From NCBI GenBank assembly GCA_963514005.1, contig OY740820.1, positions 8,494,001-8,558,000 of the forward strand: a stretch of 64,000 nucleotides of DNA, given 5' to 3'. This document shows, one piece after another, positions 14,401 through 62,879 of the stretch. Under the pieces are notes generated by a model. That model searched no databases. It was not told the origin of the DNA and saw only the letters and a list, made by a program, of their open reading frames with translations. How positions within the stretch are numbered: position 1 is the stretch's first letter; every line of letters begins with the position of its first letter. Position numbers and translations under genes: made by a program. This DNA is from Raja brachyura (Eukaryota).

Positions 14401-17400
14401 CAGCATTCGCCTAGCCGAAAGTTTATACTTTCACAAAAAGAAAGAACGGCGGGCCATGCTGAACTATTAAGACTAATTAGCAAAGGGGTAATTGAGAGAA
14501 CCACCGGAGAATCACAGGAGTTCGTATCAATATATTTACCAAAAATAAAAAGATGGCGGATGCCGCATAATCATAGACCTGACCGAACTGAATACTTCTG
14601 TTCTCCGGGCCTTCTGCTTAGATATGCACCAGTTGCATGTACGGTTACAAATTATAATACCACAGTGGTGGCCTATATTAATCATATGTGTGGAATAAAA
14701 TCGATATCATGTGATGAATTGCCTAATTACATCTGGCACTGGTGTCTGGATAGAGAGATTTGGATCTCAGCCACTTACCTTTCAGGTAAACTAAATACGG
14801 TGGCGAACACCAGGTCACGCAATTCAACGACAACATTGAATGGATGTTGGATCGGGACCCGGGGCCAGCAGCGATGGATGTTTCTCGCTGCATTGGGGGG
14901 ATTGTTTGCTATGCATTTCCCCTCTTCTGCCTCATCAGTCGGGTCTTACAAAAATGAAATGGACTCCGCAACGGGTATTTCGGGTTTCCCGACTGGCCTA
15001 CCCAACCATGGTCCCCAGCAGTACAAAGATGGCCGCAGAACACTGCTTTCGGATCCTCAAACGGCCGGGCCTGTTGGCACACCCTGTGACGGGTAAGTCA
15101 TCCGTGCCATGATCGCATGAACCTATTGATGCTGATTCTGAACAGGCCATTTCTGGACTTTGGATACTCCGACAGGACGATCAATGTCATCACATTGTCG
15201 TACAGGGAGTCCACCAGGGACAGCACTGACATATGTCAGAAGATGGGAGTGTTTCTGTCTTCAGAACAAACACTTCATATGACTCGGCCACCATCACTGG
15301 AGTGCTGGAGTTCTGGCCACCCTTCATTCCATGAAGGTTTGAGCTACAGTGCCATTAAATTTGCAAGGAGTGCCCTACCTACCAACCTGGACCGAGGGGG
15401 TGATCACCTGCCTATAGGATCACACCCTCTGGTATCAAACTGATGAGGGGTATTAATTCTATTTCCCCAGGGCCAGATACACCCATACATGGGACTTAGG
15501 CATAGAATTTACTATGCTTCGAGGATGGACACCAATATCGGGGCTCACTCTGGATAACTACATATAATATGGTTATGTTTATGGCACTTGTAACAGCACA
15601 ACGGGTCCAGTCTTTATAAAGCTAAGTATGTATGCCATGTGTTACCTATGGTAGATAACCTTTCTGATACAGGGGTACTCAAACTATATCGACCCTGTTC
15701 CTCTGGCCTAAAATTATCATTCTGGCCTACCCTGCAGATAGTCGTCTCTGCATTGTGACATATATTTACGATATAGAAGGAACCAAGAATCTAGGGGCAC
15801 GGAGAGGACTTTACCCATATGCCACAAACGCCCTCATCATAGGTCACAGTGCAAGCCACTTCGAGTTGGTTAAGGGTGGTATTGGGTGCAGCGGAGTGGA
15901 CACTGATGATTTAAATCTCACTCCACCAGGGCTGCATCCACGTCAGCGGCTAGGATGATGGGAGTTCCTATGGACCACATCCTTGCTACAGCGGGTTGGA
16001 GCAGTGAACGGACTTTTCAGCACTTCTATTATAAACCCGTGGCCGCTCCCGAGACGTTTACAGGGGAATATGTTAAGTTTCTGTTACATGATTTACCCAA
16101 TGTGGGGCATATCATTTTAGGTATGATTAAATACCTTCTTTGTTTTTCAGCACAGTATCATGTCTGAAATATGTTCATCCTCCATCACTACCATGGCAGT
16201 GTGTGAGCATGGACTCGTTCCAGGGCATGAAATCACAGAGCTTTGAAATCTTCACGTAGTCACTCACGTGACTCCGAAGTAAAATAGTGAGATTAAATGA
16301 GAACTTACCAGTTTGAAGTTTGATCTTTATTTTATGAGGAGTTACGATGAGGGATTACGTGCCCTCCGCTCCCAGAACCCTCTATTATAAAGTTCAACTG
16401 GTATGGAAGTTCTCTCTTATCTTACTATATTAGTCTACGTTGCTATCTGTGATTTCACACCACTGCTTTGAAGAATGTCGCGCATGCGTGCTGGCGGGGT
16501 CTTCACGTAATCCCTCATCGTAACTCCTCATAAAATAAAGATAAAACTTCAAACTGGTAAGTTCTCATTTAATCTTACTATTTATGTTGATATGATACCT
16601 GTTGGAAGATTATTTCAAAATTGCAGATCTAGCACTAATCAGTTCTTGATGCTTGGTGGCCTTTCCAATCTAACACTAACGTTTCCTTAATTTTGTTGCA
16701 GTGTCTTCCTTTCTGGCCTGAAGCCATTTCAAACAAGCTTCATGTCAGAGTAGTTGGCTCTGAACTGTCATCAAAATCGATCTTCTACAACAAGCAAGAC
16801 AATGGCACGTTGCTGAAGCTCGACTATGTGGTAAGTTTGTGCATTGGATGTGGTTTACAGTCTCGTTGATGTTGACAGAAGTTGGAGCTTGGTCATTTGG
16901 AATCAAAAGTTAAAATGTGGATATGGTGCTGATGTATTGGTCAAAATTACCAGACTGGTAACTGTCCAGAGGTGCGCACTCGGGTGTAGTCTTTAAATTC
17001 ATATGAAAATAGACACCAAAGGCTGGAGTAACTCAGCAGGTCAGACTGAAGAAGGTCTGAAGACCCGCAACATCACCTATTCCTTTTCTCCCGAGATGCT
17101 GTCTGACCAGCTGAGTTACTCCAGCGTTTTGCGTTTGATTCCGGTTTAAACCAGGATCTGCGGTTCTTTCCTACACGTTAAATTCAGTTAATGATTTGGA
17201 ATAAAAAATAAAATGCAGTCACAGTAATGCTGTACATGAAAGTGGTGGATTGTTGTGTGAAGTCCCCTAGTTCACTAATGTCCCTCAGGGTTGGAGATTT
17301 ACCATCTTTACCCAATCTGGATTATATGTAGATCCAGTTTCTTCGTGGTTAACTCTTAAATGCTTCTGAAACGGCTCAGTTGTTCCATGACTGTGGCGTT

Positions 17401-20400
17401 ACACCACAAAAGGACTAATACCTCACAGACTATCTGACAAGAACAAGGCAAAGTCACTCCATTTTGAAGTCCCCCATCCAGACTATTGTAGCAGCCTGGA
17501 TGGGGGGCTTTAATGTTCATCACCAAATAGAGTTGAGTGACAACACTGCTAACTGAGTTCAGCCTCGAGCTCAAAAGGACAGAACATTTTCTAGTGAACA
17601 AAGAAACCAAATATTAAACAGACATGACCTCATCCCTACCAATCTAGAATGAATCTCCTGATGGCATTTATTATACCTGCTTCAACTATTTCCTTTGGCA
17701 GCTTGTTGCATTTGTCTACCTGTGGCTGCGTGCCTGTGTGGAAAAAGTTGTCCCCTGGTTCCTATTAATTAAAAAAATAAAATGTTTTATTAAACTTGGG
17801 CCCTCCAGTTCTTGATTCACCTACCCTGGGGAAGAACATTCACCCTATCAGTTCCCCTCACGATTTGTTTACACCTCTATAGGACCACTCCTCAGCCAAG
17901 TAATAAAGTTCCAGCCTGCCCAACCTATCCCTTCAGCTCAGGTCCTGCAGTCCTGAAAGATGGGCACACTGCGCAAAAGACCAATTCCGATCAGTATAGA
18001 TGGTCATGTTTAGTTTAGTTTAAAGACACAGTGCGGAAGCAGGCCCTTCGGCCCACCAAGTCCGCACAGACCAGCGATCATTGCGCACTAACTCTACCCT
18101 ACACACACTAGGGACAAGTTTTACATTTTTATACATTTATACCAAGCCAATTAACCTACAAAACTGTACGCCTTTGAAGTGTGGGAGGAAATCGAAGGTT
18201 CTGGAGAAAACCCTCGCAGGTCACGGAGAGAACGTACAAACTCTGTACAGACAGCACCCGTAGTCAGGATCGAACCTGAGTCTCTGGCGCTGTAAGGAAG
18301 TAGTTCTGTTGCTGCGCCACCGTGCTGCCCAGTGCCATGTGGTGGGACCTGATACTATGCTGTATGATGATGATGCTGCAGAAAGGCAGGCTAGTGACAA
18401 GAGCAGCAGGTGCCTGCTGGATGCTGGAGGTTATGAATAGTGAGATGAAAAATTGTGAGAGTGTTACTGTGCGTTGAATAGACTTACTGTGTGTAACAGC
18501 GCATAGTCACATAGCACAAGAAACAGCCCTTTGACTCCTTTACTTACATTGATGCAATTTCATTGTCTCCAAATTCCCAGGTCCTATCATAAACACAGAA
18601 ATAGCTGGAACACTGGACAGAGCAGGCTGCATCTCGTTAGTCCAGTATTTTCTATTTTAATTGTAGATTTCCAGTGTGTGCAGCTTTATTAATTCCCAGA
18701 TTCCAGCACTGTTGTAGCCATTAAGCTTAAGTAAGTTTATTATGGCCATGTCTAGTTACCTATAGTTATTATCTGCCTGTGTTAATGTGGGTGGGATTTT
18801 ATACGTAGTTGCTGGCGAGAGGATTCTGGCGCAGACTCTCAAATGTCGGGCCATGGGATGGAACCGTTTTCTACCATGACCACGAGCATGATTGGGGCAT
18901 ATATATGTAGATAGACGATGTTCTTTTACAAGAAGAAGTTTTTGTGAAACCGCCACTGCAAGCACTCAACGGTAAAGGGAGAGTGAAGAGTGTTTAACTG
19001 TCCTATGTACCGACAAAGGAACAATGATGGTCCTACGCAGCAGCACAACAGGCCAGTAACACAATACACACACGTAGATGTGGATAAAACATAATAAACA
19101 CAATGCAACAAATTGATAATCCCAATACTAGTGCACTCATTACACACCAGGAACATCTTAACGTTCCCAGTGTAACGATCAACCCACACATGCTTTGGGA
19201 TGTGGAAGGAAAGTTGAGCACTGGGGACAACTAAAGGGCTTGTCCCACTTTCCCAAGTCCTCTGTCAAGTTGAAAGGACCTTAAGAAAAAATCAAGACTT
19301 TTGTGATCTACGAACTCCTCCTCCCGACTATCTTTTTACTCGTGGACTGTTTTGTCATGCTGAAAAAAAACCCAATTTACCCGATGCCCTGAGTACCTAC
19401 GGCTGGCATAACAAGTCGCTACGGACTCGCTACGGCCTCCCACGGACTCGCTACGGACATTCTCCAAGTTTGAATCAAGGGTTAAACTCGGGAGAATTCG
19501 TGAGTAACTCGGGAAAGTGGGACAGGCCCTTTATACTCACAGGGAGAATGTGTGAAGTCCACACAGGTGCCACCTGAGATCGGGAATGCACCAGAATTGG
19601 AGCTGTGAGCTCCATTACTGCACCACTCTGCCAGCCAAAGAACCTGATGGCAGCAAGACTACAAAGAGCTAAACTAACAATGCAAAAGGTGGCTCCAAAA
19701 TCTTCTGCTTTCATACAACATCGGAATAAAAGCAGAGGATCTTGGAGGCACTTTTTGCTCCTTTATATCAATGTCACAGCTACCCGTATTGTATTCTTTA
19801 TACTTTGATATCATGATTGGCATTATGTTCAACATGCAATCGGAGAGTAACCATATTCTCCAAACATTTCTCATCATCTCCACAGTTTAGTGGTATAGCT
19901 GCAGAAATTAACGTACATGTTTCCCAACGGTTGAGTCATTGAATTGCTTAGAAACGGGAATCCTGCCTCCCACGTAACAGGATTAATGAAATTGCATTGA
20001 ATTGTGATATTCTTACTCAATTTAGTCTACAGGTAAAGGAATAAAAAATTGTAAATACCATGTTTCCACAAAAAATCCTCTCACTCTCCCTCTCTCTTGT
20101 GTGTGAGTAATACGTCGACTCGAACACGCATCAAGATACAACACATATTTATTAAATCTACATACAGCAAGGATCTGCAGTCATCACATCTCCGAGCTGC
20201 TATTCATTCTAACCAACATAAACAGGCGCTTGATAATATGAAGTACATAGTAGCCGGAGTCACCACTAAAGGGCCTGTCCCACTGTACGAAGTAATGTAA
20301 GAGTTCTCCCGAGTTTTCCCCTGATTCGAACTCGGAGAATATCCGTAGCGGATCCATAGGAGTTTGTGAATGTCCCGTAGCGGCGCGTACGAGTAACGGT

Positions 20401-23400
20401 AGGCACTCGGGAAATCCGGCAAACTCATGACATTTTTGCAACATTATGAAAAATGTCCACGAGTAAAAAAAATACTCGTGATGAAAACATTTTTTACTTT
20501 TTACTCGTATGAGCCGCTACGAGACATCCATGAACTCCTACGGACCCGCTACGGACTTTCTCCGAGTTCGAATCGGGAAAATTCGGGATAACTCTTGAAT
20601 TACTTCGTACAGTGGGACAGGCCCTTAACAAACACTATAATTGGCTAGTATGGAATAGTCAATCTACATACAAAATTCTTAAGGGATTGGACATGCTAGA
20701 TGCAAGAAGATTGTTCCCGATGTTGGGGAGGTCCAGGACAAGGGGTCGCAGCTTAAGGATAAGGGGGAAATCCTTCAGGACCGAGATGAGAAGGACTTTT
20801 TTCACACAGAGAGTGGTCCGACTGGCAGGAAGGATGACGAGATAGGCGAGCTAAACGCCAAATGCCGCGGGGAGACCACAGTGGGAACAATAGGTGGCAG
20901 TGGGGACGTGGGACCGACTTCGGGAGGGTATACGAAACGCGAGACATCAGGATACGGAGTCGCAGATGTGATGACAATCTACATACAGTAACTAACTTTG
21001 AACACAAAATAGGTACAAATTTAAGATAGACACAAAATACTGGAGTAAATCGGCGGTTCAGGCAGCATCTCTAGAGAGAAGGAATGGGTGACGTTTCGGG
21101 TCGAGACTGGTCAGATTAGGTACAAATTTATGTCTGGAGAAGGATCACAACCTCAAAGGTCATGATTCCTTTTCTCCGGAGATGCTGCCTGACCCGCTGA
21201 GTTACTCCAGCTTTTTGTGTCTATCTTCGGTTTAAACCAGCGTCTGTAGTTTCTTCCTACAAATTGGTGACGGATGTTTTGCAGTTATTTTGGAAGTAAA
21301 GGACAGTACTTGCAGCCGATCTGATGCAGCTTTTGTTTTGTCAGTGTGGTGGAGTTATAGTGGACGTGAATGTTGCAGACCATGCCGCAGTGATCACCTT
21401 CACAGACTACTACCATGGATCAGCACCCGCCCTCGTCATTAATCATACTGCAGCGCTGAAGTTTCGCTTCAAGCAAAGGTCTGTAAAATCTGCACAACAC
21501 TTCTGCCAACCTTGTCGTCCCTTCCCACCCAAACCACCCCCTCCCCAGGTACTTTACCCTGCAACCGCAGGAGATGCAACATCAGTCCCTATACCTCCTC
21601 CCTCCACTCTGTCCATGGACTCTTTTCAGGTGAGGGTGAGGGTCACTTGCACCTCCTCCATCCTCATCTACTGTATCTGCTGTTCCAGGTGTGGACTCCT
21701 ATATATCTGCGAGACCAAGCGTAGGCTCGACTATCGTTTCGCTGAACACCTCCGCTCAGTCCGTCTTAACCAACCTGATCTCCCAGTTGCTCAGCACTTT
21801 AACTCCCCCTCCCATTCCCACACTGACCTTTCTGTCCTGGGCCTCCTCCATTGTCAGAGTGAGGCCCAGCGCAAATTGGAGGAACAGGACCTCATATTTT
21901 GTTTGGGCAGCTTACACCCCAGCGGTATGAACATTGACTTCTCTAACTTTAAATAGCCCTTGCTTTCCCTCTTTCTCCATCCCCTCCCCCTTCCCAGTTC
22001 TCCCACCAGTCGTACTGTCTCCGAGTACATTTTATCTCTGTCCCGCCCCCTCCTCTGAAGAAGGGTCTCGACCTGATACATCACCCATTCCTTCTCACCA
22101 GAGATACTGCCTGTCCCGCTGAGTTACTCCACCATTTTGCGTCAACATAGAAAATAGGTGCAGGAGGAGGCCCTTCGAGCCAGCACCGCCATTCATTGTG
22201 ATCATGGCTGATCGTCCCCAATCAATAACCCGTGCCTGCCTTCTCCCCATATCCCTTGATTCCACTAGCCCTATCTAACTCTCTCTTAAATCCATCCAGT
22301 GATTTGGCCTCCACTGCCCTCTGTGGCAGGGAGGCCAAATCAACCTTGTAAATGGTGCTGAATCACCAATTACAGCCTTCAGTCAATTTACAAACGGGAT
22401 GTAGTCCTGACAAACATTCTGTGAAAGAAACATATGTATTTGAAAAGACCAGGTGAACATGAGAATCTTCGTACAATGCACGGTTAATAGTGCGCTAATT
22501 GTTACAGTGAAAAATGAGTTTATAAATCATAGTCTTGGCATTGTACAGTACTGAAACTGCCCCTTCAGCCCACCACGTCTATGCTGATCATTTTAGAAAC
22601 AGAAACATAGTAATTAGGTGCAGGAGTTCCTGCTTTCTCCGCATATCTCTTGATCCCATTTTGACCAGCACTAATCACATTTGCCTGCATTAGAACTATA
22701 TCCTTCCACACGTTTACCCATATGTGTCTGCCTAATTATCTCCTAGATATAGCAATTGTATCTGATTCCACCATCTCCTTTAACAAGGCATTCCAGGGTA
22801 TCAACCACTTTCTGTGTATATCACAAAAACGTTAGCCCCTTTAAATATCCTACCTTTCACCTTAAAACTATGCCCACTTGTTTTCATATACTGATACTGG
22901 GAAAAATATTTTAGCTATCTATTCATTCAAGACCTCTTATTTTATATCCCTCGTAGGTTTAGTCGAGGTATGTCGTAGTAGGTCGGCATGTTATTCGTAA
23001 CAATCGAGGTAATCGAGGGTAGTCGAAGATAGTCGTAGATAGCCTTCAACAAAGTCGAAGGAAGATCGAAGGAGATCGAAGGAGGTCACCTTCACTCTCC
23101 ACTATTCAGTGTCCAATTTTCCGGAAGCTAGTCGAAGCTAGTCGATGCTAGTCTTCAAGGGTACACAAAAGGCTGGAGAAACTCAGCGGGTGCAGCAGCA
23201 TCTAAGGAGCGAAGGAGATAGGCGACGTTTCGGGTCGAGACCCTTCTTAGTCTTCAAAATAGTTGAAGGAGGTCCCAGGAGGTCTTCGACATAGTCGCAG
23301 GAGGTCTTCAACATGACGTTTTTGTCAAACTCCCCTAAACTGTTCTAAACTTGCCAATTAGGTCGCCACAGTGGGACAGCCCCTTCAGCCTCCTTCACTC

Positions 23401-29400: not shown

Positions 29401-31028
29401 AAACCTCCTCTGGGCCCTCTCCAGAGCCAGCACATCCTTCCTCAACTATGGTGGCCAAAGTTGCTCACAATATTCCAAATGCGGCCTGATCAGCACCTTG
29501 TAGAAGTAACTGACCTGAAACGTCACCCAATCCTTCTCTCCTGAGATGCTGCCTGTCCCGCTGAGTTACTCCAGCATTTTGTGTCTACCTTTGATTTAAA
29601 CCAGCATCTGGACTTCTTCCATTCACATTTTGTCAGCACATTGGTCAAGTCAAGTTTATTTGTCACATACACATACGGGATATGCAGTGAAATGAAAAGT
29701 GACATTATAGAGCCTATATAGCAAATATAGCAAAAATAAAATATATATCAGCATAATGTATAAAATCTTGAATTTTAAGGACCTTGATAGAATTGTTTAT
29801 ACTTTACAGGATCAGTTTGGGCAATTCCTCTGGAATCAGAACAATCAGATTCACTGGGTTTCCTTCCTTGATGGGCGACAGCGTGTGCTGCTGTTCACTG
29901 AAGACCTGGCTATTGTGTCCAAAGCGCGGCAGGCCGAGGACTTGAAACAGTTTGAAAAGGGAGTTACTATTTCCCTTCACAGCCTTGGCGTATCGCTGGT
30001 TAACAACGAAAACAAGCAGGAAATTGCTTACGTAGGAATCACCAGGTTAGTTTTTCATTTTCTGTACAAGAATGGTTTCAGCAAATGACTTGCATGAGTT
30101 TTAAAGAAATGGTGAGCATCGATGATCATGAGTGATCAATACCCCTCTATTGACAAGGCTTGAAAGATTAAACTCATCCAGTCATTTGAAATCAGTATTA
30201 TAAGTAAAAGTCACTTTGTATTTAATAATTATAAAATGCATGGCAAATGAAACGGGTTTAAAAGAATAGGAATAAAAACAGAAAACGTTGCAAACACATG
30301 ACCTTGTTGCAGCAAGTGGAGAAACGGGCAATGCTCCAGTGATGCGGTTCAATCCTGACCTCTGGTGCTATCTGTGTGGAGTTTGCACGTTCTCCCTGTG
30401 ACTGCATGTGTTTTCTCATTAGTGCTCCAGTTTCTTCCCACATCTTAAAGATGTGTAGGTTGGTAGGTTACCTGGCCACTGTACATTACGCCTAATATTT
30501 GGGGGCATGGTAGAATCTGGGGAGAATAAATTTAAAAAATGCATTGAAAATACAATGAGTTAGGGGAGTGTTAAAGAAGGAACTGCAGATGCTGGAGAAT
30601 CGATGGTTACACAAAAAGCTGGAGAAACTCAGCGGGTGCAGCAGCATCTAAGGAGCGAAGTAGATAGGCGACGTTTTGGGTCGAGACCCTTCTTCAGACT
30701 GCTTAGTGGTTAGCACAGACATGGTAGTCTGAAGGTTCTGCTTCCATTTGGTAGGGGATATGCGGGCAAAATCTGAAGAAGGGTCTCGACCCGAAACGTC
30801 GCCTATCTCCTTCGCTCTTTAGATGCTGCTGCACTCACTGAGTTTCTCCAGCTTTTTGTGTAACCCATGAGTTAGGGGAGGATTGCCTTAACAGTGTGTG
30901 CTTGGTGGTTAGCACGGACATGGTAGTCTGAAGGTTCTGCTTCCATTTTGTAGGGGATGGGCGTCAAAGTAGGAGGGGGCAGGGAAGTAAAACAGGGTAC
31001 AGGAGGCTAGGGGGTATTATCAGAAGAA

Positions 31029-31069
<41 letters not shown>

Positions 31070-34000
31070 AGGATCGGGCTAAATAGGAGGGAAGAGAAAG
31101 AAACGAGGTGAAAGTTACCGAAAACTGGAGAGTTCATTGTCCATGCTGTCAGGTAGTAAACCATCTGAGCAGACTACCCTGGTCCTGTCATACATATCCT
31201 TCTTCCCACAACGGTACCTTCTTCCCAGACACTGTTACCCTCCCCTGATCCGATCATTCATTTTCCTCTTCCCCCCCCCCCCCCACACTTCTGCCCCTGC
31301 CTTCTCATTTGCCCATTGCCCCCACCCTCATTCCGCCCCACCATATAAAATGTCTACAGTCCCAATGTCCACAGCAGCTGGCAAACCCAAATCACCCGTT
31401 CCCCACTACGTTCATCTGTGTGCACGTCAGGCGTAATCTGAAATTATTCCATATTCTTTAACGACTCTCTTCCAAAACTTTCTTATTATCACTCCTAAAC
31501 ATAGAAACATAGAATCATAGGAAAAAGGTGCAGGAGTAGGCCATTCGGCCCTTCGAGCCAGAAAAGCCATTCAATATGATCATGGCTGATCATCCAACAG
31601 TACCCCGTCCCTGCTTTCTCCCCATATCCCTTGATTCCGTTAGCCATAAGAGCTGTATCTAACTCTCTCTTCAAAACATCCAGTGAATTGGCCTCCACTG
31701 CCTTCTGTGGCAGAGAATTCCACAGATTCACAACTCTGGGTGAAAAACGTGCCTTTTTGATGCGGAAACCAAGTCACATTGTGCTAGTTTCTCGGCCTTG
31801 GTTTAAAGTCTGGCTGTGTATATTTTGGCTTTGGTTATCTTAACTTTGGTGGCAACTCTGAATCTAAAGTCTCTTTCCCCTCCAGCTGTCAACACAGTTT
31901 ATGGTGCACACAATTTGCATGTTCCTTCAAACACAATTATTGAGGCCACCATGTAATTTAACACGCGCCATTCAGTTTCCCTGGCCCTTGTAGTTTGGCA
32001 TCTTACATACTTCATACCTTCCATTGAGTTTGCACATCTGGAAGTGAAGTCGTCCCACGCAATGCCCCATCTATCCTGACGTCATTGTAATATGTTGCCT
32101 GGTGTTTTCCATAATCCCACATTTGTTTCCCTGTCATGTGCTTTGAACTCAGTTTTAGCTGACAAATGGGCAGGATGGGTTCCGTTCAGAAGTTAAACGT
32201 TGAAACTCTGATCTGTCCATTTTGTGGTTGATAGAGATGACTAGGGCTGGTACCCAACTTGCTCCCAGGAGATTCCCTGACTCTATGAAGCAGGTTAGGA
32301 AGTTATTTGAAAGAAATTGGCAGTTCTGACCGAGAGTGTTTGACAATGGGTAGTCGGCTTTCTGAAGCCTCAGGCAAGCTGATCGCTTGGAGGCAAAGGT
32401 GGATAGGAGTTGTGTGAATATGCTCATGTCCTGAAGACTGGTGGTTGTGACCTTACTCTGAATGTTGCATCCTCTTGATAAAGTGCATGTCATTCTTCTA
32501 TAGTAATGCCGAAACAATGATAATATTACCTCTGTGTAGGAAGGAACTGCAGATGCTGGTTTAAACCGAAGATAGGCACAACAAGCTGGAGTAACTCAGC
32601 GGGATAGGCAGCATCTCTGGAGAGAAGGGATGGGTGATGTCTTAGGACTGAAGAAGGGTCTTGACCCGAAACGTCAGCCGTCCCTTCTCTCCAGAGATGC
32701 TGCCTGTCCCGCTGAGTTACTCCAGCTTCTTGTGTCTATAATACTGTTTCTCTTCCACCTTATTTGTATGATAATCAAAGTACAATATGTGAAAATACAG
32801 CCCACATTAAAGTGTAGCTCTGGGCGACCTACAGCTGGCCGACAAGGTCATTGCATGTGGGAATGAGTTCACACTACATCAGTTTGTGAACTAACAGTTA
32901 CAAATGCTAGTGTATATCTCAATGGCAACACCGTCGGAAGATGAGATTTGCATGCAGAAATGTCCTTTCATTTGCGACGCAGAATCGTGAATAGATGCAT
33001 TTCCTTTTTCACTTGAAATCTTTCCACTGTATCTGGGCACGTAAAGATTAAGAATGGATGAACTAGATGAAGAAGAGAAACCCGCTGACTGGAGGTTAGT
33101 GTTGTTGAAATGCCATATGAATGACCTACAACTGAAGCATGCTTTCATAGCTTGGATGCATCATCCACACTTGTGTGAACATTTATCGCTGCTTCGGACT
33201 GAAAGAGGATGATTTCTAACCTGCCGGAGGGCATTGAGACAGCCCAGCAAGCGGTCAAGTTTCAGTGAGCAGTCAATGGGGATGATTCAAAATAAAATCC
33301 ATGGTTTGTAAAAGTGAAGCAGCTGGTTAATAATGGTAATATTTCAAACCTGAAGAGATGAAAATAGTAGCAGTGTACGTCAAAGAATATTGCGTTTAGT
33401 GCATTAGTAGAGAGAATTCAATATGAAAGGGTTGACATATTTGAAACTTACCGAAAAGTGAAAGGACTGGATAGAGTGAATGTGGAGAGGATATTTCCAC
33501 TAGTGGGAGAGTCTAGGTCCAGAGGTCACAGCCTCAGAATTAAAGGATGAGGAGGGATTTCTTTAGTCACATAGTGGTGAATCTGTGGAATTCATTGCCA
33601 AAGACAGCTGTGGAGGCCAAGTCAATTAATTTTTTTAAGGTGGAGATTGACAGATTCTTGATTTGTATGGGTGTCAGGGGTTATGGAGAGCAGGCAGGAG
33701 AATGGGGTTGAGAAGGAAAGATAGATCAGCCATGATTGAATGGCAGAGTAGACTTGATGGGGCGAATGGCTTGACTCTGCTCCTTGAACTTATGAACTTA
33801 AGAATTATAGGTTGGCCTCTGGAACGTCTGGGTCTACCTATACGAGGGTGTATGTCACCTGCATGTTGCTGCATTTTGGGTGCACTGTTTGAGAAGCTTA
33901 AGGTGAATGTTAGTATCACCGTCCCATCTTCGCTTTTCAATGGCCACCAACTTTATTCTTCTGTTCCTTTTCATTGTTCACAGATATTTATATTTTTCTC

Positions 34001-49000: not shown

Positions 49001-52000
49001 ATAAGGAGTAAGCCATTTAGAATGGAGACGAGGAAACACTTTTTCTCACAGAGAGTGGTGAGTCTGTGGAATTCTCTGCCTCCGATGGCGGTGGAGGCAG
49101 GTTCTCTGGATGCTTTCAAGAGAGAGCTAGACAGCGCTCTTAAAAATAGTGGAGTCAGGAGATATGGGGAGAAGGCTGGAATGGGATACTGATTGGGGAT
49201 GATCAGCCATGATCACATTGAATGGCGGCGCTGGCTCGAAGGGCCAAATGGCCTACTCCTGCACCTATTGTCTATTGTCTATTGACACAAAGTGCTGGAG
49301 TAACTCAGCAAGTCAGGGAGCATATGTGGAGAACATGAATTGGTGACATTTCTGATCAAGACCTTTCTTCAGACTAAGATCCTTCTTCAAACCAAAATGT
49401 TCAAATCTCAACTCAGCGGGACAGGCAGCATCTCTGGAGAGAAGGGATGGGTAACGTTTTGGGTCGAGACCCTTCTTCAGACTGGTTAGGGATAAGGGAA
49501 ACGAGAGATATAGATGGTGATGTGGAGAGATAAAGAACAATGAATGAAAGATATGCAAAAAAGTAACGATGATAAAGGAAACAGACCATGGTAAGCTGTT
49601 TGCAGGGTGAAAATGAGAAGCTAGTGCGACTTGGGTGGGGGAGGGATAGAGAGAGAGGGAATGCCGGGGCTACCTGATGTGAGAAAAATCAATATTCATA
49701 CCACTGGGCTGTAAGCTGCCCAAGCAAAATATGAGATGCTGTTCCTCCAATTTGTGTTTAGCCTCACTCTGACAGTGGAGGAGACCTGGGACAGAAAGGG
49801 CTGTGTGGGAATGGGAAGGAGAGGTAAAGGAGGACACTTTAGAGGTGAAAACTATCCTTTGGATCAAACTGTTGTAGCAGCACTAATGTAGTGTGGCCAT
49901 TGCTTAATATTTTAATTGCTTCCTTGCACAATAATTGGATCGCACCTGGCAATGATAAGATTATGGTGATGTTGATTCTGGTTTCTTTTGTAGACCAGTT
50001 TGATAGACCGAGATATGGAATCGATAAAGGCGGAATTGATAGAAACGTCCATAACTGATGCCTCCAGCCTGAGTTTCTTTGAGTATTTCCACATCTCACC
50101 AATCAAGGTAAAGGGATTGACTCCTTGTCGATTTGATACAGAATTAAGGTTGTTTACATTTGATACAGAATTTAAGTTGGTTTACTGTATCTATGTTTAG
50201 TTTAGAGATACAGCGCCGAAACAGGCCCATCGGCCCACCGTGTCTGCACCCACCAGCGATCCCCGCACGTTAATGAGAATTATTCTTAATGAGACATGAG
50301 AATTAAGGAACAGAAGTTTAGGGGTAACATGAGGGGGAACTTCTTTACTCAGAGAGTGGTGGCTGCGTGGAATGATCTTCCAGCAGAAGTGGTGGAGGCA
50401 GGATTGATTTTAACATTTAAAAGTAAAGTGGATAGGTATATGGACGGGAAGGGAATGGAGGGGTATGGTCTAAGTGCAGGTAGATGGGACTAGGGGAAAA
50501 TAAATGGTCAGCACGGACTGGAAGGGCCGAGAAGACCTGTTTCCGTGCTGTAATTGTTATATGGTTAACACAATCCTACACACACTAGGGACAATTTTCA
50601 TTTGTACCAAGCCAATGAACCTACGTCTTCAGAGTGTGGGAGGAAACCGAAGCTCTCAGATGAAACCCACGTCGGTCACGGGGAGAAGGTACAAACTCCG
50701 TACAGACAGCATCAGTAGTCCGTGTCAAACCCAGGTCTCTGGCAGTGTAAGGCAGCATCTCTACTGCTGCCACCGTGCCTCCCATATAGATGGTATTAAT
50801 AATATGCTAGTTTTAACCTCAGTCATATTTGTTTCTCTTTTTGCATAACTGTGTTAATTGAGATAACGCAGCTTTGATTTGTTTTCTCTCTTGCATATAA
50901 ATATTACATTTCTCGGCTGAAGTTTTGTTCTTTTTCCAAGTTTGCTCTAACACTGATGGCTTTGCATAAATATTAGTAAACTGAACAGTTGCCACTGATG
51001 ATTTTTTATTCATTACTTCGAAAGAAAGGAAAATTGGAGGCGATGTTATACTTGGCCGGGGAACAATTTCCACATTGCTAACTAAAGCTCAGTAGCTGGT
51101 GTAATGAAAATTGCTGTCAAATAAATGAATAGAGTTATAAAGCATGGATACAGGCCCTGTGGCCCAACATGCCCATGTCAGCCAAGATGCCCCATCTATG
51201 CTAGTCCCACCTGCCCATGTTCGGCCTATATCCCTGTAGACCTTTCCTATCCATGCTTCTATCCAAATATCTTTTTGGATAAATTAAACTAAACCAAGTG
51301 TAGAAACAAGGAACTGCTGATGCTGATTAGACCAAAAATAGACACAGTGCTGGAGTAACTTAGTAGGTCAGGCAGCATCTCCGGAGAAAAATGATGGGTG
51401 ATCTTACAGCTTGGGACCCTTCCTGGGGGGGCGAGGGGATGTTGAAGGTGCGAGTAAAGACCAGGGACACCAATTACCTGGGCAAGTCGGTGCCCTGATA
51501 GGCCCATTGTTGGCTTGGTATGATCTCAAGGTGTGATCTCAAGAGGGATATAATTTGGAGAGCAGTGGAACTGGTAAAATGAACAGAGTGGGGGGAAGGG
51601 GTAGGGGAGTGTAAGTAGATGTTACTTAAACTTACAGAATTCAATGTTCATACTGCTGTGTTATAAGCAAGCCAAGTGAAATATGAGGTGCTGTTCCATC
51701 AATTTGTGTGTGATCACAATCTGGCTCATCCAGGACAGAAAGGTCAGAATGGGAAGGGGTTGAAATTGTTGGCAACCAGGAGATCCCGTAGGCAGAGCGA
51801 GCACAAGCGTCCAACGAAACAGTCGGCGAGTCTATGTTTGGTCTCGCCAGTGTACAGGACCCAACCAAACTAAATGTTGTTATAGTACCTGCCTTAGCTG
51901 CTTCCTCTGGCAGCTCATTACATGTACCCACCACTTCTATTAAATCTTTCACCTCTTGCCTGAAACCTATATCCCCTGGTTCTTGATTCGTCTGGTAGAA

Positions 52001-55000
52001 ACACGGAACTGCAGCTGCTGGTTTACACAAAAGGGCACAGGGCTTTGTGTCTAGCGCTTTGTGTCTATCCATGTTTCTGCATTTGAACCTGACAAGTATG
52101 GGGTTTCCATAAAAATGTCATCTCCACCTTTCTACAAGCATGTCAAAAGATTCAAGAGAGTTTATTGTCATGTGTCCCTGATAGGACAATGAAATTCCTG
52201 CTTTGCTTCAGCACAACAGAACATAGTAGGCATTGACTACAAAACAGATCAGTGTGTCCATATACCATTATATACGTATATACACACATGAATATGGATA
52301 TTAAAAGCATATTCCTACTCTGGATTCTATTTGCCACAAGTTGATTGTAGACATTCTGTTCTCTTCTAACAGTTACATCTAAGCTTGTCTTTGGACTCGG
52401 GAGGCGAGGAGTCAAGAGGTACAAAGCAGGAAGCAATGCGACTCCAAACTATCCATGTTTTGCTCACGAGCATTGGAGCAACATTAACGGACGTTGATGA
52501 CCTGATCTTTAAGTAAGTAGCACAAGCTGTCTTAACGTTTGGGGTATTTTGTCCCACAATATGTTTTAATGCTGAGGTAAGGGTTGACAGTGGATGTGCA
52601 ATGGAAGGTATTTAAAGAATGCATGGATGAAGTACAAAAGTTGTTCATACCAGTTTGGCAAAAGAATAAATCGGGGAAGGTGGTGCATCCATGGATAACA
52701 AGGGAAATCAGGGATAGTATAAAAACAAAAGATGAGGCATACAAATTTGCCAGAAAAAGCAGCCTACCGGAGGACTGGGAGAAATTCAGAATCCAGCAGA
52801 GGAGGACAAAGGGCTTAATTAGGAAAGGGAAAATAGATTATGAAAGGAAACTGGCAGGGAACATAAAAACTGACTGCAAAAGTTTTTCTAGATATGTGAA
52901 GAGAAAGAGACTAGTTAAAACAAATGTTGGTCCCTTGCAGTCAGAAACAGGTGAATTGATCATGGGGAACAAGGACATGGCAGACCAATTGAATAACTAC
53001 TTTGGTTCTGTCTTCACTAAGGAAGACATAAATAATCTGCCGGAAATAGCAGTGGAACGGGGGTCAAATAAGATGGAGGAACTGAGTGAAATCCAGGTTA
53101 GCCGGGAGGTGGTGTTGGGTAAATTGAACGGATTGAAGGCCGATAAATCCCCAGGGCCAGATAGTCTGCATCCCAGAGTACTCAAGGAGGTAGCCACAGA
53201 AATAGTGGATGCATTAGTGATAATTTTTCAAAATTCCTTAGATTCTGGAGTAGTTCGTGAGGATTGGAGGGTAGCTGATGTAACCCCACTTTTTAAAAAA
53301 GGAGGGAGAGAGAAAGCGGGGAATTACAGACCAGTTAGTCTAACATCGGTAGTGGGGAAACTGCTAGAGTCAGTTATTAAAGATGGGATAGCAGCGCATT
53401 TGGAAAGTGGTGAAATCATTGGACAAAGTCAGCATGGATTTACGAAAGGTAAATCATGTCTGACAAATCTGATAGAATTTTTCGAGGATGTAACTAGTAG
53501 AGTGGATAAGGGAGAACCAGTGGATGTGTTATATCTAGACTTTCAGAAGGCTTTCGACAAGGTCCTGCATAAGAGATTAGCATACAAACTTAAAGCACAC
53601 GGTATTGGGGGTTCAGTATTGATGTGGATAGAGAACTGGCTAGCAGACAGGAGGCAAAGGGTAGGAGTAAACGGGTCCTTTTCAGAATGGCAGGCAGTGA
53701 CTAGTGGGGTGCCGCAAGGCTCAGTGCTGGGACCCCAGCTATTTACAATATATATTAATGATTTGGACGAGGGAATTCAATGCAACATCTCCAAATTTGC
53801 AGATGATACCAAGCTGGGGGGTATAGTTAGGTGTGAGGAGGATGCTTGGAGGCTGCAGGGTGATTTGGATAGGCTGAGTAAATGGGCAGATGCATGGCAG
53901 ATGCAGTATAATGTGGATAAATGTGAGGTTATCCACTTTGGTGGCAAAAACATGAGGGTAGACTATTATCTGAATGGTGGCAGATTAGGAAAGGGGGAGA
54001 TGCAACGAGACCTGGGTGTCATGGTACACCAGTCATTGAAAGTAGGCATGCAGGTGCAGCAGGCAGTGAAGAAAGCAAATGGTATGTTAGCATTCATAGC
54101 GAAAGGATTTGAGTATAGGAGCAGGGAGGTTCTACTGCAGTTGTACAGGGTTTTGGTGAGGCCACACCTGGAGTATTGCGTACAGTTTTGGTCTCCAAAT
54201 CTGAGGAAAGACATCCTTGCCATAGAGGGGGTACAGAGAAGATTCACCAGACTGATTCTGGGTATGTCAGGACTTTCATATGAGGAAATATTGGATTTTA
54301 CTCGCTGGAATTTAGAAGATTGAGGGGGGATCTTATAGAAACTTACAAAATTCTTAAGGGGTTGGACAAGCTAGATGCTGGAAGATTGTTCCCGATGTTG
54401 GGGGAGTCCAGAACAAGGGGTCACAGTCTAAGGATAAGGGGGAATTCCTTTAGGACCGAAATGAGGAAAACATTCTTTACACAGAGAGTGGTGAGTCTCT
54501 GGAATTCTCTGCCACAGAAGGTTGTTGAGGCCAGTTCATTGGCTATATTTAAGAGTGCGTTAGATGTGGCACTTGTGGCTAAAGGGATCAGGGGGTATGG
54601 AGAGAAGGCAGGTACGGGATACTGAGTTGGATGATCAGCCATGATCACATTGAATAGCGGTGCAGGCTCGAAGGGCCGAATGGCCTACTCCTGCACCTAT
54701 TTTCTATGTTTCTATGTAATCAGTTCGGGGGGGGGGGGGGGGGGGGGGGGGGTAGCTGTCTGATGAACATAACGCTGTATTTATTTTAATACTTTTATAA
54801 TATTGCAGAAATGTACGTGCTGATGACAAATTAATTTATCTGCAGTAAACATGCAATTATGGCGGAGTGAACAGCCACATTTGAATTTTAATGAGGTAGA
54901 GAACAAATGGAAGAGGTGTGCAAGATAAAAGCAGCAATATGGTCAACAGGATAATACAGAAGTAAAGAAAATGAGCACCACGTTTCATTTCTTCAGGGGT

Positions 55001-58000
55001 GGAAATAAAAATCAGTCAAGAAATATTAAACAAAAGAGGTGGAAGTTTAAGGAGAGACAGTAATAAGAGAACTCAGCGGGACAGGCAGCATCTCTGGAGA
55101 GAAGGAATGGGTGACATTTCAGGTTGAGACCCGTCTTCAGACTAATTAGGGATAAGGAAAACGAGAGATATAGACGGTGATGTAGAGAGATGAACAACAA
55201 TATAACCATAACAATTACAGCACGGAAACAGGCAATCTCTGCCCTTCTAGTCCGTGCCGAACACCTAGTCCCATCTACCTGCACTCAGACCATACCCCTC
55301 CATTCCTTTCCCGTCCATATACCTATCCAATTTATTTTTAAATGATAAAATCGAACCTGCCTCCACCACTTCCACTGGAAGCTCATTCCACGCAGCTACC
55401 ACTCTCTGAGTAAAGAAGTTCCCCCTCATGTTACCCCTAAATTTTTGTCCCTTAATTCTCAAATCCTGTCCTCTTGTTTGAATCTTCCCTACTCTCAGTG
55501 GAAAAAGCTTATCGACGTCAACTCTGTCTATCCCTCTCATCATTTTAAAGACCTCTATCAAGTCCCCCCTTAACCTTCTGCGCTCCAAAGAATAAAGACC
55601 TAACTTGTTCAACCTTTCTCTGTAACTTAGGTGCTGAAACCCAGGCCGCATTCTCGTAAATCTCCTCTGTACTCTCTCTATTTTGTTGACATCTTTCCTA
55701 TAATTAGGAGACCAAAATTGTACACCATACTCCAGAATTGGCCTCACCAATGCCTTGTATAATTTTAACATTGCATCCTAACTTTTATACTCAATGAATG
55801 AAAGATATGCAAAAAACGGATCAGCTGTATCCGTCGTTCAAGATGATGACTCTTATACATCGGCGAGACCAAACGCAGACTGAGCAATCGTTTCGCTCAG
55901 CCTGCGTGAACCAACCAGATCTCCCGGTTGCCGGAAACTTTAATTCTCCTTCCCATTCCTACACAGATCTTTCTGTCCTCTGTCTCCTCCATTGTCAGAG
56001 TGAGGCTAAACGCATATTGGAGGAACAACATCTCATATTTTGCTAGGGCAGCTTACAGCCCGGTGGTATGAATATTGGTTTCTCTCACTTCAGGTAGCCC
56101 CGACATTCCCTCTCTCTCTATCCCTTTCGCACCCAAGTCACACTAGTTTCTCGTTTTCATCCTATGAACAGCTTACAATGGGTTACACAAAAAGCTGGAG
56201 AAACTCAGCGGGTGCAGCAGCATCTAAGGAGCGAAGGAGATAGGCGACGTTTCAGGTCGAGACCCTTCTTCAGACGACCCGAAACGTCGCCTATCTCCTT
56301 CGCTCCTTAGATGCTGCTGCACCCGCTGAGTTTCTCCAGCTTTTTGTGTAACCCTCGATTCTCCAGCATCTGCAGTTCCTTCTTTAACAGCTTACAATGG
56401 CCTGTTTCCATCATCATCGTTACTTTTTTGCATATCATTAATTAATTGTTCTTTATCTCTCCACATCTCCGTCTTTATCTCTTGCTTTCCTTATCCCTAA
56501 CCAGTCCGAAGAAGGGTCTCAACCCGAAACGTCACCCAGTCCTCCTCTCCAGGGATGCTGCCTGTCCAGCTGAGTTACTCCAGCATTTTGTGTCTAACTT
56601 CGGTTTAAACCACCATCTGCAGTTCCGTCTTATACTGTAATAAGAGTGACTGGTCTCATCCATGAAGGGTTTTAAACTGCAATTTAAAGGACGAAAGATG
56701 ATTTTTTTTTTTATCATTGAGCCCAAAGCGTCAATCACAGAGACCACTGGAATAAATGGACTGTTGCTTTCAGGTTTCAGCTGGATCTTAGATTTATCTT
56801 TCTTTGGGTGAGATAAGTGTGAGATTCACAATTAGGGGGGAAAGTGGAAATGTCTTGCTTCTGAATGGACTTCCCATTCATGTCACCCAATCTGCTAGGT
56901 GTCTGATAAAGTTTTTGTTTTTATTTCAGATTTTTGCAGTTGCTTTATTTTTTATCTTCTGTAAATGTAGAGTAAGGACCAGTGAATGTTGGAGTATTAA
57001 AATCGGAAGGAACCAATAGCATGGATAAGGATTTGAGGAGAATGGGAGCCAGTTGAGGATGAGACGGTGGTGGGGCTGTAGTTAAGATTCAAGAGCCTGG
57101 TTATCAATGAGAAGATGCTATTCTTGAGCCTGGAGGCAATAGCTCTCAAACTCTTTTACCTTCATCTCAATGGTAACTGAGAGCGTGGCCAGGCTTGCGT
57201 GTTTAGTTTATTGTTGCCGTGCGTGCCAAGGTACAGTGAAAAGCTTTTGTTGCGTATTATCCTGTCAAAGAGAATATTATACATGATTACTGTTAAACCA
57301 TCCACAGTATATAGATCAGCGATAAAGGATACAGCATTTAGTCAAGTCAAGTCAAAAGAGTTTATTGTCATGTGTCCCTAACAGGACAATGAAAATCTTT
57401 CTTTGCATAGCACAACGGAACATAGAAGGCATTGACTACAATTCTATACACAAATACACCCATGAATAAATTAATAAAGTGCAAATAGCAGATGGAGGGA
57501 TATTAATGTTCAGAGTTCCGAGCCAAGTTTAATAGCCTGATGGCTGTGGGGAAGTAGCTATTCCTAAACCGGGTTGTTGCAGTCTTCAGGCTCCTGTACC
57601 TTCTACCCGAAGGTAGCAGGTAAATGAGTGCGTGGCCAGGGTGGTGTGGGTCCTTGATGATGCTGCCAGCCTTTTTGAGGCAGCGACTGTGATAAATAAT
57701 AGTGCAAAATAAAGTCTGAATAAAGATAGTTAAAAGGTCTCCAATGAGATATTTGGGAGATCAGGACCACACTCATGTTGGTGAGAGGACATCGTACTCA
57801 ATAGATAATATGATAAACAAACAAAAAAGATGTCTAATGAATAAAAAAACCCAACATAGTTCAAAACTGCACTACAGTATTTAAGTATTTGCTGTTACCA
57901 TTTTCAAAGAAATAAAAGTGAGTTTCTTGGGTTCCAGGCTTGCCTTCTTCGAAACTAAATGTCAGTTCTACAAGAGAGACCAGTTGATGTTGGCAGCAGG

Positions 58001-61000
58001 GAGACATTATGGAGAACAAGTAAGTGCTTTCTCTCTCCAATTGTCCTGCAGTTTACTTCAGCTCTGAGAATGATCACTTAGCTGATGGATAAATGGCCTT
58101 CCTGATGCTTTCCTCTCATGCCTGTTGTGAGTCAATGCTCTTGGTTAACTTTAGTTAACTTTAATCACTAACCAAACCCTCTCCCACTTCCTCACAGTTC
58201 CTCAAGCAAATGTACGTGCTTGTTTTGGGGCTGGATGTTCTTGGAAACCCGTTTGGCCTCATCAGAGGTCTTTCTGAAGGAGTTGAAGCATTCTTTTATG
58301 AGCCTTTCCAGGTAAGGCAGTGAAAATGCTATCCATTATTTTGAACGTTTCTCCATGTTTTAATGCTCATAACATTGGCGACTGTGATCATTCCAGGGAG
58401 CGGTTCAGGGACCAGAGGAATTTGCTGAGGGCTTTGTGATCGGAGTGAGGAGCTTGCTGGGGCACACGGTCGGTAGGTACCAGCTTTCTATTGACTCTGT
58501 CTTTGGTTTAGATGATGACTATGTCCATTATTCACCAACACATTGATCTCTCCCTGCAGCCTAAAATTACGATTTTCCATACAATTCCATATATTCCATA
58601 TGATATTCCATACAATTAACAGCCCTGCCAATCTTCGTGTTATTCACAGTTACCGATCTCATATCTCTGATCTACATCCAGCTCATTGACATAAATAGAC
58701 ACTAAAGCAGGACAGGCAGCATCTCTGGAGAGAAGGAATGAGTCTGAAGAAGGGGCTTGACCCGAAACGTCACCCATTCCTTCTCTCCTGAGTTACTCCA
58801 ACACTTTATATCTTTAAATTGTTAACTCTCATTAAAGAGCTCCTCATTTACTTAACATATGAGTAGCATGACCACAGATATGCTGTCTGTCCCGCTGAGT
58901 TACTCCAGCATTTCGTGCCTATCTTCGGTGTAAACCAGCTTCTGCACTTCCTTCCTACACTATAAAGTCCATATTTTTCGGATAGTTTCAGAATCGGTCA
59001 TTCACTGGATTTGAAACTTGTGTACAGCCCCAACACGGATGCAGAATACAAATGATCTTATCTACAGGTGGTGCAGCTGGTGTGGTGTCGAGAATCACTG
59101 GCTCAGTTGGCAAAGGTTTGGCTGCTATCACAATGGATAAAGAGTATCAACAGAAGCGGAGGGAAGAAATGAACCGCCAACCCAAAGACTTTGGAGACAG
59201 TTTGGCCAAAGGGGGAAAAGGCCTGATACGGGTAGGTCAAGTTCCTATTATTAAAAGAAAACTACCTGAAGGGGGAAACTTTATGGGCTGTTAAGTACAA
59301 ACATTAGGAACAGCAGTGGAGATGGTCTTTGATCTAGTTGTGGCATTGGGTGAAACTCTGAATCCTTGCACCATCTCCTGCCTGTCCCCAGTTCACTGTG
59401 GTTAACTTCTCTGCTTCTCCAGTCTAAAGTTAATAATCAACGCAGCGTAAATTGAAATGTCTACATCTTTAGACCATGGCTGCTGGTTCTCAACTTCACA
59501 GCCACCTCTAAATAGCATTATTAGAAATGGATCAAAAAATACAGGCTACCTTGAGTATTTTATTGAGAAAGACAAGACAATAAATAATATGCATGATGCG
59601 GTTAATGTTTGAACAAATTCTTTGTAAATGTGGGACCAGATTCGGCAGAACAAAATGAATGACCCAGGAACAAAAGAAGGGGCGGATACTGATCTTTGGG
59701 ATAGAAATACTAGTTCTATCTTCCATAGAGCAGTCGAAGGAAAATAAGTCATAGACACTGTAAGAAAATGTAAAAGCAAATCCTCTACTGATTGGAATGT
59801 TATCGATATGATTATAATACAAAACGTTATTGAGGAAATTGCAGAACCATTAACTCATATCTGTAACGTGTCTTTTCAATCCGGTAAATTTCCGAACAAA
59901 ATTAAAATAGCAAAAGTCATACCATTATATAAAAATGGGGATAGACACCATTTCACAAATTCCAGGCCAGTTTCATTACTCTCCCAATTCTCCCCACCAG
60001 GTCTGCGCCGACCAGCAATCCCCGCACACTAAAACTATCCTACACACTAGGGACAATTTACAATCCTTAACAAAGCCAATTCATCTACAAACCTGTACGT
60101 CTTTGGAGTGTGGAAGGAAGCCAGAGCGCCCGGGGAATCGTGGTGATGGGGAGAATGTACATACTACGTACAGACAGCACCTATAGTCAGGATCGAACCA
60201 GGGTCTCTGGTGCTTTAATGCAGCAACTCTACCGCTGAGCCACCGTGCTAGATGGTTACTGCATCTACAAAACTGTAGGGATATTGTAACAAGTCGACAC
60301 GTGAAGCCTGTATGGTCGTAAGTAGTCGCCCAAAGAGTCGTACCTTTTTCTGGTCACTGCTGGATTTTCAACATTTTGAAAATTTTCGGCGACCTGCTGC
60401 GACTGACGGGTGCGAGCAAGTCGCCGGAAAAAATTGCAGAAGTGGGACAGGCCCTTAAGAAATCTATTCGTATGGAGAATTGCATTATTAAAAACGTGTC
60501 AACAGAGAAAATGGGAGATTTAGGGATCATAAAGTTTCAGGTTTGCAATAATAACTTTTTTTTTCCTGCAACATTTAAGGTATTTTTAATAGGTATAAAT
60601 GTATTTTAGTTGTATTAAAATACTAGACACTATGTCACTATAGTATTGTTGCTCAAGTGTCAAGAGAAACAATTGCTGGCCAATTTCCATAGCCTACTGT
60701 GGTGAAACTATCAGCTGTGTTCTTAACAGGCAATGGAGTCTATTGGAACAGTATTTGTCCCCAGAGCAGCTTTCCTTTCTGCTGTTGTGTTTTAAGTAAC
60801 GTTTAAGTGGTGCTCTGGTTCCCCATAGAAATCATGTTGTAACTATCTACAATGCGATCAATTCATTCCTGTAGCATGGTGACCAGAACTGCACCCAGTA
60901 CTCCAGCTGTGGTCTCAGGTTTTATCACAGCTGCAGCACAACCTCCTTATTTTTATATTCTATGTATCCCATGCTAGTGTTCCATATGGTTTCCCAATGC

Positions 61001-62434: not shown

Positions 62435-62879
62435 GTATGTTTGTCCCATTTGGAAATGTGACAGATTATTTTGAACAATATTATGATACATTGTTAACTC
62501 TCGTTAAAGAGCTCCTCATTATTTAATATATTGCATAGCATAACCACGGTTACTGCCGAAATCACTTGGAAATAACTTTTACGTATCAGGGGGTCGTTGA
62601 AATGGTTAAAACGCTAATGCCTGACTTGGGGGAAGTCGTGTTGTAGTATATGACCCGGCAAAAATAGACCGATAGGTAATTGTGCACCCCACCAGAGAGA
62701 GGCATTCACAAGCAAAATCATTTCTGGGGTCAATGTGTTCCCATAAAGGTTAAAGGTAAGGAACCTGGGATTACACGGGATATCAAGGTTTTAATAAATT
62801 ATATAAAGGGAATTATATTGGCAAACAGCACAGAAACAGGCCCTTCGGCCCAATTTGCCCATGCCAACCCAGATCTAGC

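Follow-up and report, generated by a model that had tools for sequence, protein, structure and literature searches.

A 312-nt insert (30555-30866) was found in an intron of a VPS13C-like gene, in which two inverted pieces of a Penelope-like element (PLE) enclose a spacer that is a direct copy of DNA from the insert's own right flank. The insert is bracketed by a 14-nt target-site duplication, and the corresponding empty site is present in a related species. The unit was probably formed in a single integration event, during which a new DNA end copied about 70 nt of the neighbouring right flank before the ends were joined. The whole stretch of 64,000 nt that was analysed is referred to below as the window, and the features of the locus are given in Table 1.

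Locus and insertion target

The insertion took place in the intron following the exon listed in Table 1, and the + strand is therefore the transcribed strand of the host gene. Pfam gave no name for this exon adjoining the insert, which was named as VPS13C by a sequence search of the PDB; Pfam matches to VPS13_VAB were present in the window at 2036 and 7918, also on the + strand. The insertion target is the 5' part of an old repeat that we take to be a SINE. The core of this repeat (30356-30393) showed a contig depth above 1e6 in all four runs compared, and the repeat profile based on 12 other copies in the window matches again to the right of the insert, at 30870-30947 (E 1e-5), and in the spacer itself (E 2e-4). 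The 312-nt unit is a dead passenger, neutral debris of the intron.

Table 1. Features of the insert and its surroundings (positions in the window).
Feature	Positions	Strand	Evidence
Upstream exon of the insert-bearing intron, VPS13C-like	29804..30046	+	phmmer against VPS13C chain 9yqp_B, residues 3034-3114, E 6.7e-30
Old SINE-like repeat, 5' part, insertion target	30333..30516	+	profile of 12 other window copies, 120 bits
Target-site duplication, left copy, 14 nt, ATGAGTTAGGGGAG	30555..30568	+	exact repeat; single copy in empty-site contig
Left pseudo-LTR arm, Penelope-like, 3' end facing outward	30569..30701	-	97% to 56275-56389
Minimal hammerhead motif, left arm	30670..30697	-	AAAA in place of GAAA in the core (change at 30677)
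Spacer, direct copy of 30899-30970	30700..30772	+	57/60, then 8/13 with one gap
Right arm, same subfamily, without tail, 3' end outward	30772..30866	+	3/90 differences from majority of five young arms
Minimal hammerhead motif, right arm	30773..30800	+	all core letters present
Target-site duplication, right copy, ATGAGTTAGGGGAG	30867..30880	+	exact repeat; empty-site contig
Uncopied flank, 18 nt	30881..30898	+	between right duplication copy and spacer source
Spacer source	30899..30970	+	old SINE-like 3' end to about 30947, plus about 23 nt past the profile match

Insert boundaries and empty site

For comparison with public contigs, four runs (X1, X6, X15 and X17) of the 21 listed were used. The empty site that the initial annotation had proposed to look for in related species was found in an 817-nt contig (X1 record 4), which passes from 30379-30554 directly to 30867-31018 with zero letters between. 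It carries the 14-mer once, and the spacer source is present once and in place. With a single copy in the empty site, the 14-nt direct repeat, which had been described correctly as bracketing the unit, is a target-site duplication, and the presence of the spacer source there means that the source is older than the insertion. The same contig has an extra letter behind 30962, exactly where the spacer exceeds the flank in the window by one letter, and this supports a spacer reaching to about 30970.

In a second species, the left outer junction was bridged by a contig (X17 record 19) that covers 30426-30602 with 0 substitutions and extends 34 nt into the tail of the left arm. For the best-matching species, X15 record 15 covers 30844-30948 with no difference; 23 of its letters lie to the left of 30867, against a bar of 31 letters, and its end at 30948 is the exact end of a 32-nt block common to spacer and source. 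Among the contigs listed for this species, none spanned the whole unit or either spacer junction, and little or no contig cover was obtained over 30949-31020 in runs X15 and X6, a gap from which nothing follows. Another contig, X17 record 23, fits 30899-31013, while the 24 letters before 30899 do not match the window, which suggests that the left arm and spacer there continue directly into the flank on the right. This species may lack the right arm and the 18 nt of uncopied flank through a later deletion between the repeats formed by spacer and source, or the contig may instead have been merged via the 32-nt identical block.

Structure of the arms

The arms are head-to-head pieces of one young Penelope-like subfamily, in the textbook inverted pseudo-LTR arrangement. 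The initial annotation had recognised them as two inverted Penelope tails, and this is borne out by their 95% complementarity over 94 nt each (30605-30698 and 30772-30865) and by the Penelope-like marks that they carry. The left arm differs from the majority of five young arms at 2/90 positions and has, as the only one of the two, an outer tail of 36 nt (30569-30604), 35/36 identical to the tail at 56354-56389. The inner ends of both arms lie at nearly the same position of the element, where most copies end, and the element consensus runs to 30701.

In total, 46 arm pieces in 27 clusters could be identified in the window, the young subfamily being represented by five pieces at three loci, with no ORF attached to it anywhere in the window. 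A related older arm at 22054 shows 76% identity to the young arm, and a GIY-YIG remnant located just upstream of it (21612-21953) gave a Pfam E-value of 0.015, below the cut-off, and an Atlas value of 0.96 to GIY-YIG clusters. As a whole, 21300-22151 looks like what is left of the end of a Penelope-like ORF, with its GIY-YIG motif region, and a hammerhead arm comes after it.

Hammerhead motifs

The minimal PLE hammerhead described in PMC4209133 comprises CUGAnGA, an unpaired letter before helix II, GAAA, an ACGU palindrome replacing helix III and a GUC site. Motifs with this layout were recognised by eye in both arms and in 22 other copies in the window, and they occupy the first 28 nt of every arm. 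The initial annotation had placed one hammerhead in each arm, which holds for the positions and for the intact right core; the left core is mutated, and no support was given by Rfam, with 0 matches at gathering level in the whole window and two chance matches by E-value in 30200-31100 (E 1.9 and 2.9), neither to a hammerhead model. In the predicted fold of the + transcript, the helix II pairs of the right motif have probabilities below 0.0001, the motif being paired into a 94-bp arm-arm hairpin (fold z -20.7), and within the spacer, helix I partners of the right motif do not exceed 4 nt.

Compared with the ribozymes treated in the accessible text of PMC4209133, the unit differs in its changed left core and in a right motif that is buried in the hairpin and whose helix I could consist of no more than one G-U pair. 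As the two motifs are located on opposite strands, a tandem dimer in one RNA is impossible. With the left core changed and the right motif paired into the hairpin, cleavage by either copy is unlikely. The hammerheads are passengers and incidental to the unit, and nothing is gained from the earlier emphasis that the duplication lies between ribozyme motifs, as every arm begins with such a motif. A microRNA-like or ribozyme function of the hairpin was also considered and is unsupported.

Origin of the spacer

Over its first 60 nt (30700-30759), the spacer agrees with 30899-30958 at 57/60 positions, compared with 34/60 for the best other ungapped 60-nt match in the window. Its end (30760-30772) agrees with 30959-30970 at 8/13 positions with one gap, which is worse than the first 60 (Fisher p=0.0035); the near-identity to the flank reported in the initial annotation applies to these first 60 nt and not to the last 13 of the approximately 73. 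The first two letters of the spacer, TG, belong also to the left arm (a 2-nt microhomology), and GATATGCG within the last 12 nt of the spacer resembles GATAGGCG of the arm, so that the element itself was considered as a possible source of these 12 nt.

The spacer shares the private changes of the source copy and extends past the end of the repeat profile, while six other copies of the repeat reach just 68-82% over 28-39 nt. At 85% likeness, contig depth over 30926-30963 was 8-56, compared with 10-22 for a single-copy exon and more than 1e6 for the repeat core. By sequence comparison, the flank of the same site is a better source than any other place in the window, and the spacer is of local origin. 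The captured segment had been called host DNA, which is right as far as the local flank is concerned; by its profile match it is mostly the decayed 3' end of the older SINE-like repeat. The capture would have been in doubt if the spacer, as part of a common repeat, had matched distant loci equally well; it does belong to such a repeat, but the other copies are clearly poorer matches and the proposal is not refuted.

The 3/60 differences between spacer and source are in line with those of the arms (2/90 and 3/90). The agreement of these ages indicates that the copying may have been contemporary with integration, but on 3-5 substitutions a somewhat later event is possible as well. No sign was seen of the captured piece moving on with the element.

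Other head-to-head units and elements in the window

Ten head-to-head units were identified in the window, six of them with duplications of 9-16 nt that exceed the 99th percentile of random flank pairs. The remaining four, at 21k (score 8, above the 95th percentile), 32.5k, 37.6k and 43.8k, have no duplication above the 99th percentile. Three of the ten, a small count from one gene, hold local DNA: the unit described above (30555-30866), 21023-21260 and 61295-61789. Among six inner gaps tested for a local match, four were without a significant one. The inner gap of the older unit at 21023-21260 contains an exact 13-nt copy of its left flank, equalled at 0/1,962 random places; two insertions may also account for this unit. 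In the unit at 61295-61789, an inner piece of 62 nt matches single-source intron DNA at 62487-62547, 700 nt away, at 85%. This last unit is a compound Penelope-like structure of five arm pieces with a 15-nt duplication (14/15).

Head-to-head joints are also found elsewhere, in at least 283, 310, 288 and 209 contigs in the four runs (in the 12 rows listed), some with fillers of up to 26 nt. A young spacer-less head-to-head unit with a 14-15-nt duplication and one tailed arm is located at 56180-56389, where it interrupts an older Penelope-like copy (about 55825-56631) in its upstream portion; 49480-49830 on the minus strand may be compared. A local duplicate of about 430 nt was observed between 58528-58960 and 61159-61599 (357/401 aligned letters), consisting of intron DNA and part of the 61.3-kb Penelope unit. 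The end of the copy at 58528-58960 coincides exactly with that of a tail, and a weak repeat (ACTAT..GTCCATTATT) flanks the copy, as though copying had begun at a tail start site and the product had been placed 2.6 kb upstream. The window further contains a stop-free frame of 580 aa at 52581-54323 with an RVT_1 domain (E 1e-31), representing a retroelement, and two inverted-repeat elements unrelated to the arms, at 16282-16583 (80 nt at 98%) and 20269-20626 (52-77 nt at 86-92%), which are probably small DNA transposons.

Formation of the unit

According to the accessible text of PMC11167929, a Penelope-like protein in purified form is able to cut both strands and to extend them, and hammerhead cleavage is not needed. 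In the same work, reverse transcription begins at two RNA sites close to each other, and the interval between them corresponds to the tail. In the single integration event that probably produced the unit, the GIY-YIG endonuclease would nick both strands 14 nt apart, and both nicked 3' ends would prime reverse transcription, one per start site, yielding the tailed left arm and the untailed right arm. Cutting of both strands in combination with two start sites would give two outward 3' ends, one of them tailed, and the 14-nt duplication. Both cDNAs would end at one shared position, the 5' end of the RNA at the hammerhead, after which one cDNA end would pair by 2-3 nt with the flank, extend by about 70 nt, release and join the other cDNA. 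Candidate pairing sites are TG at 30899-30900 or, on the assumption of a later change at 30771, AGT at 30968-30970; the end of the right arm shares T with the end of the source, or AGT under the same assumption. Microhomologies of 2-3 nt are frequent by chance, and judged by the sequence either arm may have made the switch. For polymerase theta, 60 nt in a single run would be long, and copying by the reverse transcriptase of the element or by strand-annealing repair is at least as likely. Template switching by the element during integration, as first proposed, is retained in part: copying at integration is the most economical account, and the copying enzyme may have been either the element's reverse transcriptase or a host repair polymerase.

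The same single event could have used an RNA template, with the reverse transcriptase jumping to the host pre-mRNA after completing the right arm and copying 30970 back to 30899, but this is unlikely. It would agree with the + orientation of the host gene, with all local copies in the window being direct and on the + strand, and with the copy of 61159-61599 at 58528-58960, whose exact end at the tail end resembles that of a tail-primed cDNA in intron RNA; PLEs can also carry intron-containing host genes, according to the accessible part of PMC3846280. However, direct repeats are expected equally from DNA templates (PMC7165422, as far as its accessible text goes), one gene on one strand provides no test of strand bias, and the closeness of the source to the nick would be left unexplained.

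It is distinctly unlikely that a direct join of the arms came first, giving a near-perfect palindrome whose tip later broke and was repaired by copying nearby DNA in. Spacer-less joins are common, the unit at 56180-56389 being an example in the window, and contigs joining 30699-30701 to 30770-30778 number at least 209-310 per run in the 12 rows listed; end-joining repair is also described to yield locally templated direct repeats in the accessible text of PMC7165422. A broken tip is at odds with the inner ends of both arms, which are no more than 3 nt off the usual position and show no central deletion, with a spacer that appears as old as the arms, and with a source lying beside the original nick and at least 127 nt from the tip.

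The order of the parts is collinear with yet another history, in which the right arm inserted with a duplication of about 104 nt and the left arm then inserted into the first copy, with 18 nt deleted. Some LINEs do have very long duplications (bioRxiv 2022.05.23.493040), and a two-step history would suit the 21-kb unit too. The duplications called in the window are, however, of 8-16 nt, a second strike by a subfamily as rare as this one (3 loci in 64 kb) would be needed, in opposite orientation and exactly 14 nt into the duplication, and a pair of arms of which just one is tailed is known as the signature of a single unit, all of which makes two insertions very improbable.

An assembly artefact, or a spacer taken from another copy of the common repeat, has almost nothing to recommend it: among the listed contigs none covers the entire unit, the source belongs to a very common repeat and the best-match comparison refers to the 64-kb window, but spacer and source differ at 3/60 places plus the end, the stop of X15 record 15 at 30948 is where a read-graph fork is expected at the shared 32-nt block, and depth over 30926-30963 is near single-copy (8-56) with the spacer passing the end of the repeat.

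Relation to known systems

Inverted pseudo-LTR insertions of PLEs are described in the accessible parts of PMC3846280 and PMC8557442 as head-to-head arms with an 8-10 bp duplication and a 30-40-nt tail on one arm. The unit resembles these endonuclease-containing PLE units in its arms, its short duplication (14 nt here), its single tail and the hammerhead within the arm. Unrelated sequence between solo pLTRs, flanked by a duplication, has been reported as well (PMC3846280, accessible part). Compared with known PLE units, an ORF is absent here and the origin of the piece between the arms could be placed 18 nt past the insertion site of the unit itself; in the accessible text of PMC3846280 and PMC8557442, captured spacers are not traced to the adjacent flank and inverted joints are explained by self-priming palindromes.

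A comparable junction is known from L1, for which the accessible text of bioRxiv 2024.08.27.596794 gives templated insertions below 250 bp with a source within 15 bp of the site in 22 of about 3,600 solo L1 copies, a count made with no dedicated search; PMC11702581, in its accessible part, adds three further cases. In both systems, non-element DNA of less than 250 bp from beside the site appears to be copied in during integration. The present unit differs from the L1 cases, as far as these are described there, by its element class and endonuclease and by a source starting 18 nt from the duplication instead of "within 15 bp". Furthermore, both nicks would here copy the same 3' region of the element and so give two overlapping arms and not the halves of twin priming.

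In the accessible text of PMC7165422, single synthesis runs of polymerase theta in synthesis-dependent MMEJ are described as AT-rich and rarely longer than 10 bp. The spacer is similar to such templated insertions (TINS) as a direct repeat of the flank within about 30 bp, possibly started at a 2-3 nt microhomology, and differs from them by its single run of 60 nt.

No description of locally templated spacers in PLE inverted units was found in the literature searched, in which older Penelope papers from subscription journals are thinly represented, and the accessible part of bioRxiv 10.64898/2026.07.22.740005 contains nothing on inverted spacers. The unit is a combination of a known element architecture and a known kind of junction scar, a pairing that was not found described.

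Significance for Penelope-like elements

The accessible text of PMC8557442 and PMC11167929 describes the completion of PLE integration and the origin of inverted units as unresolved. The unit, with its clean empty site, fits the model of two nicks and two starts in vivo and would add to it a copying step that is known from L1. Local copying could even be a routine step of Penelope-like elements, in which the reverse transcriptase, on passing the RNA 5' end, would jump to cut DNA or to a nascent transcript, and intron tails would be start sites copying an intron a few kb off, as for the 58.5-kb copy of the 61.2-kb stretch; this broader proposal is possible but rather doubtful. If it is routine, about one third of head-to-head units would carry local DNA (3/10 here, compared with 22 of about 3,600 for L1), and the hundreds of junctions per genome would represent a fossil record of the Penelope end-joining step. 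Should the rate of 3/10 hold genome-wide, PLEs would steadily generate small local duplications, and their junctions would permit a direct test of DNA versus RNA templates.
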